Source: Chloroflexota bacterium (GTDB lineage: Bacteria; Chloroflexota; Chloroflexia; Thermomicrobiales; UBA6265). Taken from it: 64,000 bases of DNA. Position 1 is the stretch's first letter, and each line of letters opens with the position of its first letter. This document shows, one piece after another, positions 10,511-64,000 of this stretch. Location: positions 13,230 through 77,229 of the forward strand of contig JAEWEG010000045.1 in the NCBI GenBank assembly GCA_023389575.1, given 5' to 3'. A model generated the notes under the pieces. It searched no databases. It saw only the letters and a program-made list of their open reading frames with translations, and was not told the DNA's origin. Position numbers and translations under genes: made by a program.

Positions 10511-12046
10511 TCAGCGCGCTTCCGGCGGAGGCGTGGTCTTCCGCCTGGACCAGATCGAGGCCCACGTTCGCCGCGCGAACTCCGCGTCGCCAGGATCCGT
10601 CGTTTCGCCGTAGCGAGCGCGGTCGTACTGCTCCGGCAACTCAACGAGCGGCGCTCCCAGCCCCGTCCAGTGCGCCCGCAGGCGCGCGGCGAACTCGGTC
10701 GCCGTCTCGTCGGAACGCCGCTCCTCTCCCTGCCGCCGCGCCAGGACCTCCAGGTACATCATCGTCTCCCGGACATCCGCTGGAGGCTGGTCGAGGTCCA
10801 GGCGTTGCGGCTTGCCCTCGCGGTGCCGTCTCCGGAACAGGTCGCGGAGTTGCTGGCGCGCGAGGTCGGTCGAGAACACCGAGTCGCGATGCTCGTCCAC
10901 GTCTCCATCGTCATCGTCCCCACTCGGACGGCGGGTCAGCCGGAACAGGATGATCGCCACCGCCGTCACCACCGCGACCAGGCCAGCCCAGCGCAGGAGG
11001 ATGGCGTATTGCCACGTACCAGTCTCCTCGTCGCGCACCTGCATCTCATCCATGTCGAAGCCCTGCTGCACGGGCATCTCCGGCGCCTCCACCGGGCCGA
11101 ACATGTCGCCGAAGATGGCGGACAGCAAACGTCCAATCACGGAAGCGATCTGGAAGACGGCCCAAATCACGGCGTAGAGGATGTACGCGAGAATCAGTCC
11201 GATGAAGCGGGCCACCGTGGCCATCCCGTCGACGATTGCCTCCAGCGCACCCGGGCTGAGCAGTGCCAGCACGATGGTCGAGATCAGGAGGATCCCGACC
11301 GTGAACCCGCCCACCAGCCGCAGCCACCGGCCCCATCCTGGAGCGGTGCCGCCACGCCTGATGGCGATCCTCCGCGTCACCTCCGTCTCAGCTCCGGCGA
11401 TCAGCGCCAGGCTCACGATCAACTGGAGCGGCACCGCGATCCTCGCCGCGCCGAGCGCGTCCGACCCCGCCTCGCCGCCGATCAGCGCCGCCAAGAGCAC
11501 GGACCCGAACAGCACGATCCAGTCGCGCTGCACGACCGTCCGCATTTCCTCGGCCGAAATGTTCACGATATCGACCGCGTAGGTCATGCCGGTCCACCAC
11601 ACCGCCATCGAAATCAGCAGCGGCGGAATCAGCCAGGCTTCGGACTGCACGAGTTGTCCCGGGTTGGACCAGAAGGTCGTGCTGTCATAGGCGGGATCGA
11701 TCCAGATCCACCCCAGCCAGGTGATGCCCCACGCGATGAACGTCACGATCTGCGCCAGGGTGGCCGAAATCTTCCATCGCCCAATGAAGCGGTTGGTCCA
11801 GAACGAAATCAGGAAGATCACCGCGATCGCGCCCGGCCACGGAGCCGGATGCCCGTTCGACAGCCCAAACGTCTCGCCAAGAAACAGCTTGATCAGCAGC
11901 GAGAACGCCGCCGCGTGAAGCGTTCCGACCAGGACCGGGATCATGATCAGCATCGGCCAGGAGTGTTTCAGCGACTGCCGCCGAAGGGCCTGGTCGCGCC
12001 CCTTCGTGTTCTTGCTCGCGTCGCTGTTATAGGCGGGGTCGAACAT
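10511..12046 (-). CDS. Polytopic membrane protein with C-terminal DUF4129-like domain
   Basis: Many hydrophobic helices. The C-terminal cytoplasmic tail has a DUF4129-type pattern (TATEFAARL...YDRARYGE). The start lies 4 nt after the DUF58 gene stop. Confidence 0.6.
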   Translation of the reverse strand: MFDPAYNSDASKNTKGRDQALRRQSLKHSWPMLIMIPVLVGTLHAAAFSLLIKLFLGETFGLSNGHPAPWPGAIAVIFLISFWTNRFIGRWKISATLAQIVTFIAWGITWLGWIWIDPAYDSTTFWSNPGQLVQSEAWLIPPLLISMAVWWTGMTYAVDIVNISAEEMRTVVQRDWIVLFGSVLLAALIGGEAGSDALGAARIAVPLQLIVSLALIAGAETEVTRRIAIRRGGTAPGWGRWLRLVGGFTVGILLISTIVLALLSPGALEAIVDGMATVARFIGLILAYILYAVIWAVFQIASVIGRLLSAIFGDMFGPVEAPEMPVQQGFDMDEMQVRDEETGTWQYAILLRWAGLVAVVTAVAIILFRLTRRPSGDDDDGDVDEHRDSVFSTDLARQQLRDLFRRRHREGKPQRLDLDQPPADVRETMMYLEVLARRQGEERRSDETATEFAARLRAHWTGLGAPLVELPEQYDRARYGETTDPGDAEFARRTWASIWSRRKTTPPPEAR

Positions 12047-47439: not shown

Positions 47440-49038
47440 CTACTCGCCGTCGACCGAGCGCCAGAACGTTCCCGCGCCATACACGTCGAGGTTCTCCACC
47501 ACCACGTGCGAGGCCACGCCATCTCCATCCAGCGTGAAGGTGACGGCGCTGGTCGTTCCACCGTTTTCGCCAGGAGGCATGTAGGTGAACACGTCACGCG
47601 AGTAGTGGGCAAGCGAGAAGGTCATCCCCGCCGGTCCAACCCGCATCACCAACCCCTCGCTCTCCTCCAGCACCTCCAGCGGCCCGAAGAAGTCATTCGC
47701 ATACTCACCGGTGTACGCGCCAGCGTCCGCGGGCTCGATCACCACGGTTGGCGGTTCGGCCACGGACGCGCCATATTTCGGCGCCCCTGACTCCTTAATA
47801 ATCGCGCCGACCAGCGGGAGGTAGTCCATCCGAACGGCGCCAACGTGGAACAGGTCAAGGAAGCCCAGCGCGATCGCTTCGGCCGCCCCCTCCGGCGCGG
47901 CATTGGTCAGCACCGTGATTCCGAGTCCCTCCGCGGGCAGCAGGAACACGCAGGTCGCCGCGCCCAGCGCGAATGCCCCGGAGTGGGAGACCGACACACT
48001 GTCGCCGCCGTATCCCACGTTGAAGCCCAGGCCGTAGAACCCCGCCTGCTCGGTGGACGGATGATCGGGATGGTTGCTGATCGCGTGCGGGAGATGCGTT
48101 TCCTCCAGGCCCGCCGCGGCCACCACCTGCTCGCCATCGAACATGCCGTTCGCCAGCTGCAACCGCATCCACTGGCTCATGTCATTGACCGAGGAGCTGG
48201 CTCCACCGGCTGGCGACTGGGGGTCCGGCTGGCGGTCCTCGGCGTGGGTCCACTCGCCGTTCACCAGCATGTGACCGGCGGCGCGGTTGTCCATCGCCAT
48301 GAATTCCGCGTTCAGCGAGGTTGTCCGCGTCATGCCCAGAGGTTCGTAGAGCCGGGTTCGCGACGTGTCCTCCCAGGTCGAACCGGTGAACCGCGCCGCC
48401 GCGTCGGCCGCCGCCGTCAGCCCGAAGTTGGTGTAGGCGTATGAATCGCGGAACGACCCTTCTGGTTCCAGGTAGCGCAGGTTGTGCAGCACCAGTTCGC
48501 GGTCGCCGCCGAGGTCCTCCAGCAGGTCTCCCGCGTGATCGGCGAGCCCGCTCCGGTGGCTGAACAGGTCGGCCAGCGTGACGTTCGCCGTCACCCACGG
48601 GTCGCTCAGCGCAAACCCCGGATCGATGTCCGCCATCTTCGTGTTCCAGGCAATGGAACCGTCACCCACCAACGCCGCGACCACCGTGGAGGCCAGGCTC
48701 TTGGAGACGGACGCCAGCTGGAACACCGTATCGGCGTCCACCGCGCCTTCCACGCCCGCTTCGCGAACGCCGAAACCGGCGGCGTACTTCTGTGTGTCCT
48801 CGTGTACCACCGAGACGGCGATTCCCGGAATGCCCGTCCGGCTCATGACGTCGTCAACGAGGCCAGGCAACCCCTCCAGCGCTACGTCGATTCCTCCAGC
48901 CTCCGCGACGGGCGAAGCCTCCTGCGCGTGTCCCGCGACTGGCGCGGCAACCACGGCCGCCATCGAGGCGGCCGTCCCCGCGGCGATCGCCTGCCGCCGT
49001 GAAAGGCGTGGCTGGCGCACCTGGTCATGTATGGCCAT
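47440..49038 (-). CDS. Tat-exported serine hydrolase (class C beta-lactamase/PBP fold) with C-terminal beta-sandwich extension
   Basis: ATG 49038 follows AAAGGAA. Twin-arginine signal LSRRQAIAAG, SxxK motif ASVSKS, YAYTNFG (Tyr motif). Confidence 0.8.
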   Translation of the reverse strand: MAIHDQVRQPRLSRRQAIAAGTAASMAAVVAAPVAGHAQEASPVAEAGGIDVALEGLPGLVDDVMSRTGIPGIAVSVVHEDTQKYAAGFGVREAGVEGAVDADTVFQLASVSKSLASTVVAALVGDGSIAWNTKMADIDPGFALSDPWVTANVTLADLFSHRSGLADHAGDLLEDLGGDRELVLHNLRYLEPEGSFRDSYAYTNFGLTAAADAAARFTGSTWEDTSRTRLYEPLGMTRTTSLNAEFMAMDNRAAGHMLVNGEWTHAEDRQPDPQSPAGGASSSVNDMSQWMRLQLANGMFDGEQVVAAAGLEETHLPHAISNHPDHPSTEQAGFYGLGFNVGYGGDSVSVSHSGAFALGAATCVFLLPAEGLGITVLTNAAPEGAAEAIALGFLDLFHVGAVRMDYLPLVGAIIKESGAPKYGASVAEPPTVVIEPADAGAYTGEYANDFFGPLEVLEESEGLVMRVGPAGMTFSLAHYSRDVFTYMPPGENGGTTSAVTFTLDGDGVASHVVVENLDVYGAGTFWRSVDGE

Positions 49039-49198
49039 GCTGTGTGTTCCTTTGTCGAAACCAAATGATGTGCAAGACGTCACTGTTCGGTCGTCGAACG
49101 CAGGAGCATGCCGTTCTACTCGGAGCGCAGGATTCCCACCTCCATTCTGTCAGAAAATCCCCAAAATGGATCATTCGCTCCCGACGAATTCCCCATCC

Positions 49199-52278: not shown

Positions 52279-53580
52279 TCACATCAATGCGCCAGCCGAA
52301 CTGGTCCACGCGGTCAACCGGGTCAGCGCGCCCGAAATCATCAGGATCCCGATCGCGATGATCAGCACCGCGCTGATTCGCTCCAGGCGTGGCAACCACG
52401 GCCCGAATCCCTTGCGATGGCGCATAAACCGGTCGATCAGCACCGTTCCCAGCAGGAACGGCACGGCCAGGCCCAGCGAGTAGATCGTCAGCAACAGCAC
52501 CCCCTGCCCCATCGAGGCGGTGGCAGCCGCCAGGGTCAGGATGCTGGCCAGGGCGGGGCCGATGCAGGGCGTCCACCCGGCTCCGAACGCCATCCCGATC
52601 GCGAAGGTCCCAATCGGCCGGGCCGGTTTCCCGGACTGGCCGAACGATGGCCGCACGATGCGGTCCAGCGCCGCGATCCGGAACACGCCGAGCATGTGCA
52701 GGCCCATCACCAGCAGGAGCACGCCACCGATCCTGGCGATCCAGTCGCGATACTCATGCAGCAGGCCGCCAATCGCCGAGGCGGACGCCCCCATCGCGAT
52801 GAACACCACGCTGAACCCGCCGACGAACAGCAGGCCGTTTCGCAGGGCGATTCGCCGCGTCTTCTGGCGCTGATCGGCCTGCTGGCGGCTCATCTCCTCG
52901 GCGCTCACGCCGGTGATGTAGGCCGCGTAGGTTGGAATCAGCGGAAACACGCAGGGCGACAGCACGCTCAGCAATCCCGCCGCGAACGCCGCCAGCAGCC
53001 CCACGGTGGCAACCGTCGGAATCGCGTCGCTGTCGACCGCGCCACTGCTGGAGAGCGCCGATTCGATCAGGCTCCGGTTTTCAGGGCTTCCCGCTTCCAG
53101 TTCGCCCTTCCACTGGTAGGCGATGTTGCCGGCCCGGTCGATCAGGATCGTCTCCGGCACGCCAGACGTGCGGAACGCCTGCTGGAAATCCCCGGGCTCG
53201 TCCCGCACGAGGGTGAAATTCACCCCCAGGTCGCTGGCGAAGTCGGCGATCCGCTGGTTGGAGCCACCGATATCGAGGCTCACCCCGATCACGTGCAGGC
53301 CGTCCTCGCCGTACTCGTCGGCGAGCGCCTGGAGTTCCGGCATCTCGCGCTTGCATGGCTCACACCAGGTCGCCCAGATGTTGACCAGCACCACCTCTCC
53401 CCGCAAATCACGCAGGGAGAGGTCGCCGGAACCATCGAGGAGTGGCGCGGTCAGGTCGGGCGCCTCCTCGGCGCCGGCGGGGGTTCCGGCGATCCCACCG
53501 CCGAGCAACGCGACCAGGAATGCGAGGACGATCCCGCCGCGAAACGAGCGTTTTGAAAGGTCACATCTCGGGCGTTGCAT
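52279..53580 (-). CDS. TlpA/ResA-like thioredoxin fused to CcdA (DsbD-family) thiol-disulfide transporter
   Basis: WATWCEPC thioredoxin motif, then CcdA helices with LSPCVFPLIP and GWTPCIGP. ATG 53580 overlaps the pcuAC-like gene by 20 nt. Confidence 0.85.
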   Translation of the reverse strand: MQRPRCDLSKRSFRGGIVLAFLVALLGGGIAGTPAGAEEAPDLTAPLLDGSGDLSLRDLRGEVVLVNIWATWCEPCKREMPELQALADEYGEDGLHVIGVSLDIGGSNQRIADFASDLGVNFTLVRDEPGDFQQAFRTSGVPETILIDRAGNIAYQWKGELEAGSPENRSLIESALSSSGAVDSDAIPTVATVGLLAAFAAGLLSVLSPCVFPLIPTYAAYITGVSAEEMSRQQADQRQKTRRIALRNGLLFVGGFSVVFIAMGASASAIGGLLHEYRDWIARIGGVLLLVMGLHMLGVFRIAALDRIVRPSFGQSGKPARPIGTFAIGMAFGAGWTPCIGPALASILTLAAATASMGQGVLLLTIYSLGLAVPFLLGTVLIDRFMRHRKGFGPWLPRLERISAVLIIAIGILMISGALTRLTAWTSSAGALM

Positions 53581-54145
53581 GGGGAGTGCCTTCCGCCGTC
53601 GCGCTGGTCAGCTTGGGCGCGGGCCGCGACCACACGCCCTCGATCACGAGATCGCCTGCCGTCCACTGCTCGCCTTCTTCGGGCAGTTCGGTGGCGATCT
53701 GGGCCGTTACCGTCATGTCGCCAGCCTGCTCGAAAGTCAGCGTGATCTCGAACGTCTCCCCCGGCAACAGGGAGTAATTGAGCCCAATCAGCATCACGTG
53801 CAGGCTCATCGGCTCCAGAAGCACCGATTCGCCCGCCGGAATCTCCAGTCCCTCTTCGAGGTGCACCATCGACATCACTTCGTCCACGACTTCCATGTCA
53901 TGGATTTCGACGACCATCGCCGCGTCGGACGACGCGCCGATCAGCCGGTCGGCTTCGTCGCCGTTGTTGGTGATCGTCAGGTAGGCCGCGCCGGTGCCGG
54001 TATCGGCGGCGCCATGCCCGGCCATCGGGCTCGCGTCCGGGGTCGCTCCACCGGTATCGTGCGCCGTCGCGATGCGCCCGGCAGCGGCCAGGCTGGCCAC
54101 GAACAGGACAACCGCGACGATTGAAAGGATTCGCTTGCGTGCCAT
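53561..54145 (-). CDS. Copper chaperone PCu(A)C
   Basis: Signal/anchor MARKRILSIVAVVLFVASLAA. Cu(I) motif EIHDMEVVDEVMSM...SLHVML (the H-x10-M...H-x-M pattern). Confidence 0.8.
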   Translation of the reverse strand: MARKRILSIVAVVLFVASLAAAGRIATAHDTGGATPDASPMAGHGAADTGTGAAYLTITNNGDEADRLIGASSDAAMVVEIHDMEVVDEVMSMVHLEEGLEIPAGESVLLEPMSLHVMLIGLNYSLLPGETFEITLTFEQAGDMTVTAQIATELPEEGEQWTAGDLVIEGVWSRPAPKLTSATAEGTPHATPEM

Positions 54146-54185
54146 GGGAATGCTCCTCCAACCCAGCGTCTCATGTGGCCGGGAG

Positions 54186-54827
54186 TTAGTCGTCCAACAG
54201 GTGTTGTATGTCCTCGGTGATGTTCTCCACGTCGGTGCCGTATGCCCAGGTCAGGGCCAGGTTGCCTTCCTGGTCGATGGCGAAAAGCGAGGTGGTGTGG
54301 TCCACCAGGTAGCCGCTCACGCTGTCCGACTCCTGCCGCGCGTACATGATGTTGTAATCACGCGCCACCTTTCGGGTTTGCTCCTCGGTGCCACGCAGTG
54401 CGTGGTAATCGGGCCCGAAAAACTCCATGTATTCGAGGAGCCGGGCCTCGGTGTCCCGCTCTGGGTCCACCGATACGAAGACCACCTCGACGTTTTCCGC
54501 GTCATCGCCAAGCTGCTGCTCCACCCGCTGGATATCAAGCAGGGTCGTCGGGCAGAAATCCGGGCACCACGTGTACCCGAAGTACAGCAACACGACCTTC
54601 CCCTCCAGGCTTTCGAGGGAGAACGCGTTTCCGTGCTGGTCGGTGAGGTCGATTGGCGCGGCCTGGTTCGGTGGATCGAAGGTGCCGCCAAAGTACTCGT
54701 AGTCATCCTCGCCGAAGACACTGGTGCAACCTGAAAGCACCACCATCGACAGGATGAGCATCGTGAACGCCGCGAACCGCGACGTCCGTGGACGAAGAAC
54801 GCTCAAGGGAATATCTCCAGTTGTCAC
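54186..54827 (-). CDS. SCO (Sco1/SenC) family copper chaperone / thiol-disulfide oxidoreductase
   Basis: FGYTWCPDFCP (CxxxC) and LVDHTTSLF (conserved His). N-terminal anchor present. Confidence 0.85.
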   Translation of the reverse strand: MTTGDIPLSVLRPRTSRFAAFTMLILSMVVLSGCTSVFGEDDYEYFGGTFDPPNQAAPIDLTDQHGNAFSLESLEGKVVLLYFGYTWCPDFCPTTLLDIQRVEQQLGDDAENVEVVFVSVDPERDTEARLLEYMEFFGPDYHALRGTEEQTRKVARDYNIMYARQESDSVSGYLVDHTTSLFAIDQEGNLALTWAYGTDVENITEDIQHLLDD

Positions 54828-62460: not shown

Positions 62461-62943
62461 CTAGTGGCCCTGGGAGCGACGCCAGCGCGGCACGACCCAC
62501 CAGAGCGCGATGATGATGGCGGCGAATCCGCCAGCTATTGTCCACGACGCCCACCGCCCGGCAATCACCTCGGACATCACAAGCTGGGTGGCCAGCACGA
62601 GCGCGATGGACAGTGGCACCAGCCCGGCGATGATGTATCGGGTAGCGATGTTCTTGAATGCCTCTCGGTCACGCAGCGGGCGCTGCAACCGGTGCTGCGC
62701 GGCGGGCGCGGAGAACAGGATGAGGCTCAGCAACGTACAGATGAAGGTGACGACATAGACGGCCTTCTCCTCGTCGCGAATTTCAGCGAACCCGCCGTTG
62801 AACGGCAGGATGATGAGAAACGCGGTCAACGTCTGCGCTCCCGGCAAGAGCACGCGCATCTCGTTCAGCATGTCGCTGAGGTCACCGTCCCCCTGTTCCT
62901 CGGCGAATTGCTCGGCTCGTGTCTTGGCATCGGTTGGTGGCAA
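62461..62943 (-). CDS. DUF6328-like membrane protein
   Basis: LNEMRVLLPGAQTLTAFLIILPF followed by three further TM segments. Confidence 0.6.
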   Translation of the reverse strand: MPPTDAKTRAEQFAEEQGDGDLSDMLNEMRVLLPGAQTLTAFLIILPFNGGFAEIRDEEKAVYVVTFICTLLSLILFSAPAAQHRLQRPLRDREAFKNIATRYIIAGLVPLSIALVLATQLVMSEVIAGRWASWTIAGGFAAIIIALWWVVPRWRRSQGH

Positions 62944-63105
62944 TTAGCGGTCCCTTCTGGCGACTCTGGATAAAGTGTCACGAATGATACGCTGGAAGTG
63001 GATGGCGACACGCGAGCCCAAGATGTTGCCCGCGCATCCATCCTCGGCCGCGCCGGATACGCGCTCGTCACGCCTACCGGGCACGGCGTCAGGAGCACCA
63101 ACGCG

Positions 63106-63915
63106 ATGACCAGGCACGACATCGACCCACGGAATCCCGGCGAGACCGACGCGGAAGAACCGGACGAGCGATGGACCATCACCCGGCGAGCCATCGTTGC
63201 CGGCCTCGCCGGTGTCCCGGCGCTCTCGACGGCCGCCGTCCTTGGAGCGGGCCTTCGTCACGATGACGACGACGACCACGACGACGAGGACACGCATGAT
63301 GACGACCATTCGGATGACGACCATGATGATGACCACGACGATTCTGACGACGACGATGGTCCGGCGCGCACGCTGGAAGACGGGTCGATCGAGGTTCGCA
63401 TCACCGACGACGACTCCGACGGGTTCACGCCCCAGTCCCTCACCATCCAGCCGGGCCAGTCAATCACCTTCGTGAACCGCGACGACGATGCCCATACCGC
63501 CACCGGGGCTGACTGGGATACGGGCATCCTGCAACCTGGCGACAGCGCGACCATCGCCTTCGACACGCCTGGCGAGTTCGCCTATGCCTGCCAGATCCAC
63601 CCCGTCATGACCGGAACCATCATGGTGGAAGGGGCGGTCGCCACCCCGCAAGCGTCTCCGGCGGCGTCTGGAGACACCATCAGCATCGTCAATCTCGCCT
63701 ACGACCCACCCCAACTCGATGTCGCCGTGGGGACGACCGTCACCTGGACGAATGACGACCAGGTTTCACACACCGCGACAAGCGCCGACGGCCTGTTCGA
63801 TACAGGAACCATCGGCGCTGGGGAGTCAGCCGGCATCACATTCGACGAGGCGGGCACGTTCGAGTATGTCTGCGCGTTCCACGCTGGCATGCGCGCGACG
63901 GTGGTTGTGAGCTAA
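63106..63915 (+). CDS. Tat-signal protein with His/Asp-rich tract and two cupredoxin domains
   Basis: ATG 63106 follows AGGAG. Twin-arginine motif TRRAIVAGLAG. Domain 1: DDAHTA...YACQIHPVM. Domain 2: VSHTA...YVCAFHAGM. Confidence 0.8.
   Translation: MTRHDIDPRNPGETDAEEPDERWTITRRAIVAGLAGVPALSTAAVLGAGLRHDDDDDHDDEDTHDDDHSDDDHDDDHDDSDDDDGPARTLEDGSIEVRITDDDSDGFTPQSLTIQPGQSITFVNRDDDAHTATGADWDTGILQPGDSATIAFDTPGEFAYACQIHPVMTGTIMVEGAVATPQASPAASGDTISIVNLAYDPPQLDVAVGTTVTWTNDDQVSHTATSADGLFDTGTIGAGESAGITFDEAGTFEYVCAFHAGMRATVVVS
63259..63357 (+). repeat. Coding low-complexity His/Asp tract
   Basis: 33 codons, HDDDDDHDDEDTHDDDHSDDDHDDDHDDSDDDD, built from GAC/GAT/CAC/CAT repeats. Confidence 0.9.
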
Positions 63916-63928
63916 CCAGCCCTCACAT

Positions 63929-63952
63929 CGGCCGGGGCGTGGTCCCCGGCCG
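63929..63952 (+). terminator. Hairpin after the di-cupredoxin gene
   Basis: CGGCCGGGG-cgtggt-CCCCGGCCG (9-bp stem), 14 nt after the stop. No T-tract. Confidence 0.45.
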
Positions 63953-64000
63953 GCACGGCGTCACGCCGCGATCACCCGGACCTCGACCGTGTCACCCGTA

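Follow-up and report, generated by a model that had tools for sequence, protein, structure and literature searches.

An aspartate- and histidine-rich N-terminal tract is retained in nearly all members of a mainly Thermomicrobiales family of multi-domain cupredoxins with RR-type signals

We analyzed a cupredoxin gene close to the end of a 64,000-nucleotide stretch of DNA from a Chloroflexota bacterium of the Thermomicrobiales (contig JAEWEG010000045.1 of assembly GCA_023389575.1, positions 13,230 to 77,229 of the forward strand; hereafter, the window). The gene product is best read from its sequence as an exported electron-transfer protein, in which a twin-arginine-type signal precedes two amicyanin-like type-1 copper domains. 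Between the signal and the first domain lies a 33-residue tract made up almost entirely of aspartate and histidine. Tracts of this kind are kept at the same position in nearly all relatives that share the signal and the first domain, and it is their composition, rather than their sequence or length, that is conserved across the family. Our preferred reading, which is tentative and draws on sequence features and on analogy, is that the tract may be a functional, polyanionic N-terminal arm that binds divalent cations.

The tract of the query protein spans residues 52–84 (HDDDDDHDDEDTHDDDHSDDDHDDDHDDSDDDD; 63259–63357, plus strand) and comprises 23 Asp, 6 His, 2 Ser, 1 Glu, and 1 Thr, giving a charge of about −24. 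The probability of finding at least 29 Asp or His in 33 residues is ~1e-24, given the ORF (open reading frame) composition of the window. The mature protein as a whole has a net charge of about −47, with the remaining −23 contributed by the body of the protein (−14 and −9 for the two domains). Histidine is otherwise sparse: of 11 in total, the tract holds 6, the n-region of the signal has 1, and the other 4 are type-1 copper ligands. The tract is predicted to be disordered; the AlphaFold2 model gave pLDDT values of 47–59 and no secondary structure over residues 1–88. The underlying DNA forms a degenerate 12/15-nt tandem repeat (CACGATGACGAC; GACGACCACGATGAT) with matches of 69–70%, a plausible substrate for slippage. 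The tract belongs to the "pure" HDDD-repeat type that is typical of its subclade. A protein search with the tract and short flanks returned three candidates, none of them significant, the low-complexity words being unhelpful in that index.

Searching public metagenome assemblies yielded 315 proteins that match the query at E ≤ 1e-5. Matches with names are proteins of Thermomicrobiales metagenome-assembled genomes (MAGs), whose annotations go no further than "plastocyanin/azurin family" or "cupredoxin domain-containing." The top match in the GTDB species set shares 75% identity and comes from an uncultured Sphaerobacteraceae genome, and two- and three-domain relatives derive nearly all from Thermomicrobiales or Chloroflexota MAGs, with no cultured strain represented. 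All 111 full-length homologues from the first search carry the tract, at lengths of 17–127 residues (median, 40). Combining both searches gave 172 members with an RR signal and a first domain, and the tract is present in ~167 of these, down to ~40–45% identity. The roughly five exceptions are protein P0054 and the Gly/Met-rich proteins P0266–P0269. Among relatives 75–84% identical to the query, the folded domains are mostly identical, and the tracts are 29–44 residues long and differ by several indels, always opening with LRHDD and closing with DDD-x-G-P/M. A preliminary description of this gene, made from the sequence of the window, had taken absence or high variability of the tract among close homologues as the mark of a neutral linker. 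Absence does not hold, with ~167 of 172 members carrying a tract, but the sequence and length of the tract are indeed highly variable. The survey is nevertheless compatible with the proposal in that description of a high-capacity, low-affinity tail for divalent cations.

Residue choice within the tracts is far from uniform. Asp accounts for 35–41% of tract residues, followed by Gly (15–17%), His (7–9%), Ser (7%), and Arg (6%), and among the minor residues are Glu (~4%), Asn (3–4%), and Tyr (0.1–0.2%). The Asp:Glu ratio is ~8–11:1. Tyr can be reached from the Asp codon GAC by mutation as readily as His, yet is almost missing from the tracts.

We then considered whether this richness in Asp is particular to the family. 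Across 428 kb of Thermomicrobiales DNA, including the window, no other real ORF contains an Asp tract. One of the ORFs of the window (47440–49083, minus strand) encodes another RR-signal protein, of the beta-lactamase family, and here the signal is followed by ordinary sequence with no tract. Its domains are PF00144 and DUF3471, and its RR-type signal reads LSRRQAIAAG...AGHAQE. Related cupredoxins outside the clade (from Actinomycetota, Acidobacteriota, and others) have either no N-terminal linker or a PT/AP-rich one. Nor is Asp the default linker composition, because the inter-domain linker of the same proteins is rich in Pro, Ala, and Ser. An acidic, salt-adapted proteome was ruled out as an explanation, since the ORFs of the window have a median pI of ~5.4 and contain 12–15% Asp plus Glu, compared with 22% in this protein, and none has another tract. 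Taken together, the 428-kb ORF survey, the non-acidic inter-domain linker, and the tract-free outside relatives indicate that the Asp richness of the arm is selected for composition and is specific to the family. The tract being family-wide, absent elsewhere in the 428 kb, and unlike the protein's own inter-domain linker, the view in the preliminary description that it is no neutral accident is borne out.

Many of the tracts also contain an embedded motif, D-x-D-[NS]-S-G-[PHRS]-G-[NS]-x-x-D, with 102 copies in 76 of 170 tracts, whereas shuffled tracts would be expected to give 0.2 members. Position 12, which was left unconstrained in the search pattern, is Asp in 74 of the 102 copies. By sequence, the motif agrees with an EF-hand/DxDxDG calcium loop at positions 1, 3, 5, 6, 9, and 12. 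An example of the 12-residue motif is DHDNSGPGNAEDR; it occurs in P0016, P0023, P0030, P0032, P0033, P0046, and others, as well as at loci L010, L011, L015, L017, L019, and L022. A similar insertion, EDDSSGPGSGDDD, was seen within a different cupredoxin-like domain in Actinomycetota proteins (loci L038–L044). A second motif, SGRGRG(RG)n, sits between Asp runs in 32 of 170 tracts, mainly in a three-domain subclade (for instance, P0063, P0083, P0085, and P0274–P0320; loci L012, L015, L017, L019, and L022), and is lacking from the query tract.

The Gly/Met-rich exceptions are paralogues (L005, 7006–7821; L018, from ~6688), and the L005 copy lies directly upstream of P0083. In these proteins, an N-terminal region GMSGQGQGPEPGMGHGGGG...PTGMAPMG takes the place of the Asp tract, and the inter-domain linker is Met-rich (MPSPMNWSAPAMQSM). 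Their nearest sisters, P0270 and P0271, keep Asp/His tracts. Both Met-containing regions are, by sequence, reminiscent of Cu(I)-binding Met motifs.

The gene itself is complete and apparently simple in layout. Its coding sequence (63106–63915, plus strand, stop codon included) is monocistronic and runs from ATG to TAA over 269 codons, with the frame unbroken from signal to stop. A likely ribosome-binding site read from the sequence, AGGAG, lies at 63091–63095 on the same strand, 10 nt 5′ of the ATG. Gene callers agreed on this ATG on three independent metagenome contigs, and close homologues open with MT(T/R)HD; a longer version starting at a GTG at 62998 is therefore unlikely, as the position of the AGGAG also indicates. 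The identical protein, P0001, was read on eight contigs from the public assemblies. Consensus scans of 62800–64000 gave no hit that would suggest a promoter or terminator.

The signal region covers residues 1–50 (63106–63255, plus strand) and consists of an acidic n-region, the residues T-R-R-A-I-V, and an h-region. The arginine pair is at residues 27–28 (ITRRAIVAGLAG; 63184–63189), and the Gly/Ala-rich h-region of 22 residues ends in LGAGL and has a mean Kyte-Doolittle value of ~1.6. Across the family, the arginines are preceded by S, T, or R and followed at +2/+3 by L, I, or V, in agreement with the twin-arginine consensus. An AxA-like site lies no more than 4 residues from the tract in 104 of 108 members, as in ALA|HDDD or AFA|QDDD, and a basic residue stands just before the tract in 32 of 108, including R51 of the query. 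Because the AxA-like motif abuts the tract so regularly, the signal is probably cleaved, with the tract forming the mature N-terminus, rather than retained as a signal anchor. The query protein contains no lipobox. As 46 of 111 tracts begin with His, a histidine-brace or ATCUN site at the N-terminus was considered; it was dropped, as the distance from the likely cleavage site to this His is inconsistent across the family.

The preliminary description had further proposed that Tat export implies folding, and possibly copper loading, in the cytoplasm. Copper loading in the cytoplasm does not follow, since copper enzymes that use the Tat route, CueO and NosZ for example, are translocated as apo-proteins. 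Genes for extracytoplasmic copper and redox biogenesis are also present in the window, in a PCuAC/Sco cluster (52279–54827, minus strand) ~8 kb upstream of the cupredoxin gene. The cluster encodes a thioredoxin-CcdA (DsbD-type) fusion (52279–53580), a PCuAC copper chaperone (53561–54145), and Sco1/SenC (54186–54827), all on the minus strand.

Beyond the tract, the two cupredoxin domains are well defined. Domain 1 spans residues ~91–174 (63376–63627, plus strand; Pfam PF13473) and domain 2 residues ~191–269 (63676–63912, plus strand; Pfam PF00127, residues 194–268). Both profiles scored above their cut-offs and matched two stretches each, with 71 bits and a whole-protein E value of 7e-20 for PF13473, and 70 bits and 3e-19 for PF00127. 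Each domain has a full set of type-1 ligands. In domain 1, these are H130 (63493–63495) and C162-Q-I-H165-P-V-M168 (C162, 63589–63591; H165, 63598–63600; M168, 63607–63609), and in domain 2, H222 (63769–63771) and C256-A-F-H259-A-G-M262 (C256, 63871–63873; H259, 63880–63882; M262, 63889–63891). Both sites use the minimal C-x2-H-x2-M loop, as in amicyanin. The tract, RR motif, domains, ligand sets, and short loops were thus all found where the preliminary description had placed them. In a 57-sequence alignment, all eight copper ligands and both signal arginines are invariant, and the acidic motifs I-x-DDD-x-D-x-F and N-x-DDD-x-H of domain 1 are conserved. AlphaFold2, run with the same alignment, gave pLDDT values of 94–98 over both domains, dropping to 61–78 in the 16-residue inter-domain linker (residues ~175–190, EGAVATPQASPAASGD; 63628–63675, plus strand), which is rich in Pro, Ala, Ser, and Thr and non-acidic.

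To place the protein among known cupredoxins, we compared it with solved structures and with family-specific profiles. By sequence, the best relatives of known structure are 9cck, through its C-terminal cupredoxin (E = 6e-17), and amicyanin (E = 9e-12; amicyanins range from ~1e-11 to 1e-9). By Foldseek, a single domain aligns with amicyanin at a TM-score of 0.73, normalized to the target. Against the two-domain laccases SLAC and Ssl1, the whole chain reaches a TM-score of only ~0.25, with a root mean square deviation above 11 Å. The protein scores below the equivalog cut-offs for amicyanin, plastocyanin, pseudoazurin, and halocyanin alike. Amicyanin proper was ruled out on a TIGR02657 score of 63.4 bits against a cut-off of 110.2 and on the absence of methylamine dehydrogenase (mau) genes from the neighborhood. 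A two-domain multicopper oxidase of the SLAC type was ruled out as well, as the protein has only type-1 ligands, with no HxH or trinuclear-cluster histidines, its domains are ~85 residues long, and the global structural match is poor. On these sequence criteria, it forms a family of its own within the plastocyanin/azurin superfamily.

The two-domain arrangement is not unusual in itself, because tandem arrays of short-loop cupredoxins are common: when 1.8 billion cluster representatives were searched with a profile, 1,141 scored E ≤ 1e-30, and the arrays have 2–8 sites per chain. Arrays in other lineages (P0121–P0265) have up to eight C-x2-H-x2-M sites and exceed 1,100 aa, with PT/AP-rich linkers, Sec-like signals, and no Asp tract. 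Such long tandem arrays could act as multi-copper "wires."

How might the arm work? Once the signal is cleaved at the AxA-like site, the Asp/His tract would become a free, disordered N-terminal end. Its length would drift through slippage of 12–15-nt units of GAC, GAT, and CAC while selection holds its composition. In the clade of the query, the dense carboxylates, with imidazoles every ~4–6 residues, could bind divalent cations weakly but in number, with Cu2+ held through His and Asp, and Ca2+ or Mg2+ through Asp. After export, the arm would collect or buffer cations beside the two copper sites and might also keep the carrier extended, away from the anionic membrane surface. Cation binding is supported by the preference for Asp over Glu and for His over Tyr and Asn, by the EF-hand-like loops and the Met/Gly paralogue, and by the precedents of CopI and the multicopper oxidase CjMCO, which are described below.

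Several observations weigh against this proposal. Cation binding is itself read from the composition of the arm and from analogy. The number of His residues per tract ranges from 0 to 7, and although 95 of 170 tracts have at least three, 64 have only one or two and 11 have none. Since His is dispensable in these 11, His-based coordination cannot be the family-wide function. Some members exchange part of the tract for Ala/Glu or RG repeats, a pattern more in line with a role in charge or spacing than with specific coordination. The query tract has no EF-hand/DxDxDG loop, the nearest match starting with Ser. As for export, the N-terminus of the query does not match the Tat profile TIGR01409, and of four homologues tested, one gave 8.3 bits, with the cut-off at 16.7. 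The Tat signal claimed in the preliminary description therefore stands as a motif-level assignment, backed by the RR pair and the family-wide consensus fit but not by the profile. The cleavage site of the query (LGA|GL or GLR|H) is also less canonical than the ALA|HDDD of many relatives. Finally, among the neighborhoods of ~35 Thermomicrobiales loci, no copper-homeostasis or respiratory genes are conserved beside the gene.

The tract might instead simply be a charged spacer or tether that has no role specific to metals, an entropic, membrane-repelled segment between an uncleaved anchor or free N-terminus and the redox domains. It would then give the carrier its reach between membrane complexes, as in auracyanin B, halocyanins, and lipid-modified azurin. 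We regard this as unlikely, though it deserves serious weight. The tract directly follows the h-region, varies from 17 to 127 residues without sequence conservation, and is predicted to be disordered, all as expected of a spacer, and the partial replacement by Ala/Glu or RG repeats points the same way. In single-domain relatives from other phyla, a PT/AP-rich linker occupies this position, the 22-residue h-region could span a membrane, and the auracyanin B of Chloroflexus is membrane-tethered (PMC3150298). A spacer would, however, have no need of so much Asp, or of such a bias over Glu, in proteins whose inter-domain linker is made of Pro, Ala, and Ser, nor would it call for His to be so much more frequent than Tyr or Asn, which are just as accessible by mutation. 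The conserved D-x-D-N-S-G-x-G motif is unexpected in a featureless spacer, and the AxA-like motif at the tract in 104 of 108 members argues for cleavage. The least functional account, in which the tract is a neutral and functionless by-product of replication slippage in GAC-rich repeats, does explain why its DNA is a degenerate tandem repeat and why indels are frequent among close relatives. This account is largely refuted by the homologue survey and strikes us as very improbable: the tract has been kept through deep divergence in ~167 of 172 members without any change of position, is missing from every other gene across the 428 kb of related DNA, where base composition is the same, and has a non-random choice of residues, with conserved motifs embedded in it.

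Two further possibilities give the arm a binding role of another kind, and we consider each of them improbable. The arm, with the EF-hand-like loops of many members, may be a non-covalent anchor that retains the cleaved, soluble carrier through cation bridges, either to wall polymers or an S-layer outside a single-membrane cell or to minerals such as carbonates and metal oxides. The two copper sites would then be placed so that electrons could be passed on at the cell surface or beyond it. The loops in 76 of 170 tracts and the extreme acidity of the mature protein are in keeping with this. Poly-Asp binds calcium minerals strongly, as in biomineralization proteins, and Chloroflexota are generally seen as single-membrane organisms, where a soluble carrier released by cleavage would have to be retained in some way. 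Set against this, the neighborhood gives no sign of extracellular electron transfer or wall attachment, profile searches of the protein found no recognized anchoring domain, and the single-membrane envelope of these uncultured organisms is assumed. If anchoring were nevertheless correct, a periplasm-type redox shuttle would be held in place in a way not described before, by neither a lipid nor a transmembrane tether, and the availability of Ca2+ or Cu2+ could gate where the carrier is located. Electrostatic docking, for which there is similarly little likelihood, would have the acidic tail capture a basic redox partner. An acidic hinge protein aids the docking of cytochrome c with cytochrome c1 in the mitochondrial bc1 complex, and the acidic patches of plastocyanin dock cytochrome f. 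Here, the folded domains are themselves acidic and bear nearly invariant DDD motifs, one of them directly before H130. Yet no partner was found near the gene, the one adjacent candidate, a DUF2231-Rieske gene, is limited to the closest relatives, and a length range of 17–127 residues is hard to square with a defined interface.

We also examined the genes around the cupredoxin gene. Divergent from it is a gene for a DUF6328 membrane protein (62461–62943, minus strand). Convergent with it is the gene for a 295-aa fusion of DUF2231 with a Rieske [2Fe-2S] domain, on the minus strand; its 3′ end falls at ~63961–64000, and the gene extends beyond the window (10856–11743 of locus L001). The neighbors further include a DUF5060 glycosidase-like protein, UvdE, and a molybdenum hydroxylase. 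Synteny with DUF6328 and DUF5060 and the adjacent DUF2231-Rieske gene are confined to the closest relatives, and the ~35 loci revealed no conserved functional partner. As the neighborhood varies beyond those relatives, neither a redox partner nor a copper-homeostasis operon can be inferred from it. Genes of the three-domain subclade are located among beta-oxidation genes for acyl-CoA dehydrogenase, thiolase, and enoyl-CoA hydratase. Beta-lactamase-family genes adjoin the cupredoxin gene at loci L004, L006, L008, and L010, which is probably plain synteny.

Small blue-copper carriers are textbook proteins, yet their copper loading and retention outside the cytoplasm are poorly understood in single-membrane bacteria. 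The ~170 sequences gathered here form a natural series, with arms of 17–127 residues, 0–7 His, EF-hand-like loops present or absent, and a Met-rich paralogue, in which metal capture, buffering, tethering, and partner docking could be told apart. Should the arm load the type-1 sites, the idea of a "built-in metallochaperone," which is established in Cu,Zn-SOD and has been suggested in CjMCO, would reach simple electron carriers. Any practical value is modest, in that the tract would act as a natural metal-affinity and solubility tag.

Comparison with known systems shows which of these features are familiar. The folded domains resemble amicyanin and other short-loop PF00127 cupredoxins (PDB 1aac, 1sfd, and 9cck), with which they share the Greek-key fold, the His/Cys/His/Met ligands, and the C-x2-H-x2-M loop. 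With 9cck, a Nitrosopumilus multicopper oxidase, the query also has in common an N-x-DD-x-x-H-T motif before the first ligand. Relative to amicyanin, it differs in having two tandem domains, an RR-type signal, and the Asp/His arm. Auracyanin B of Chloroflexus, from the same phylum, is a membrane-tethered blue-copper carrier (PMC3150298). Like halocyanins and Laz (with its AAEAP-repeat linker), it resembles the query in placing a flexible, low-complexity segment between a membrane-targeting element and the cupredoxin, though auracyanin is azurin-like with a single domain, whereas the query has two, and its signal is likelier to be cleaved than to serve as an anchor. The linkers of these proteins are rich in Gly, Ser, Thr, Pro, and Ala, unlike poly-Asp/His. 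The acidic, high-capacity tails of the calsequestrin C-terminus and of the histidine-rich Ca-binding protein, and the His/Asp-rich loops or tails of ZnuA, SlyD, and bacterial Cu,Zn-SOD, are likewise disordered stretches of Asp, some also with His, which bind divalent cations weakly and in large number or pass metal to a site close by. Tails of these types are unrelated to the query in sequence and context, and none is on a type-1 copper electron carrier.

The nearest parallels are two exported copper proteins. CopI of Rubrivivax gelatinosus is a copper-tolerance cupredoxin with a His-rich domain at its N-terminus, and a peptide from it, DAGHDHGSAHAGAHAHDA, binds Cu(II) 1:1 and stays disordered (PMC13308877). 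It shares with the query the combination of an exported cupredoxin and a disordered N-terminal extension containing His and Asp (in the query, predicted, with 6 His in 33 residues). The extension of CopI is short and rich in His, Ala, and Gly, while that of the query is Asp-dominated and precedes two domains; the two are likened by their features and not by sequence relatedness. The query also has no Met-rich segment and, unlike a CopI-like context, no adjacent cop, cus, or cue genes. In CjMCO, the two-domain multicopper oxidase of Cellvibrio japonicus, deletion of the His-rich N-terminal region leads to loss of two of six Cu per protomer (PMC13151041). The N-terminal metal-binding extension of bacterial Cu,Zn-SOD is cited in the same paper. 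CjMCO and the query both have a Tat-type signal, a disordered, His-containing mature N-terminus, and cupredoxin-fold domains. CjMCO, however, is an oxidase that forms trimers, contains a trinuclear cluster, and has a His-dominated tract (13 His in 37 residues), compared with type-1 ligands only, no HxH, and an Asp-dominated tract in the query. Given CopI and CjMCO, the statement in the preliminary description that a metal-binding tail is an unusual combination with blue-copper domains was too strong, and the general idea of His-rich metal-binding extensions and low-complexity tethers is not new. What appear to be undescribed in the literature searched are the dominance of Asp in the arm, its near-universal retention in RR-signal multi-cupredoxins of Thermomicrobiales, and the EF-hand-like motif embedded within it.

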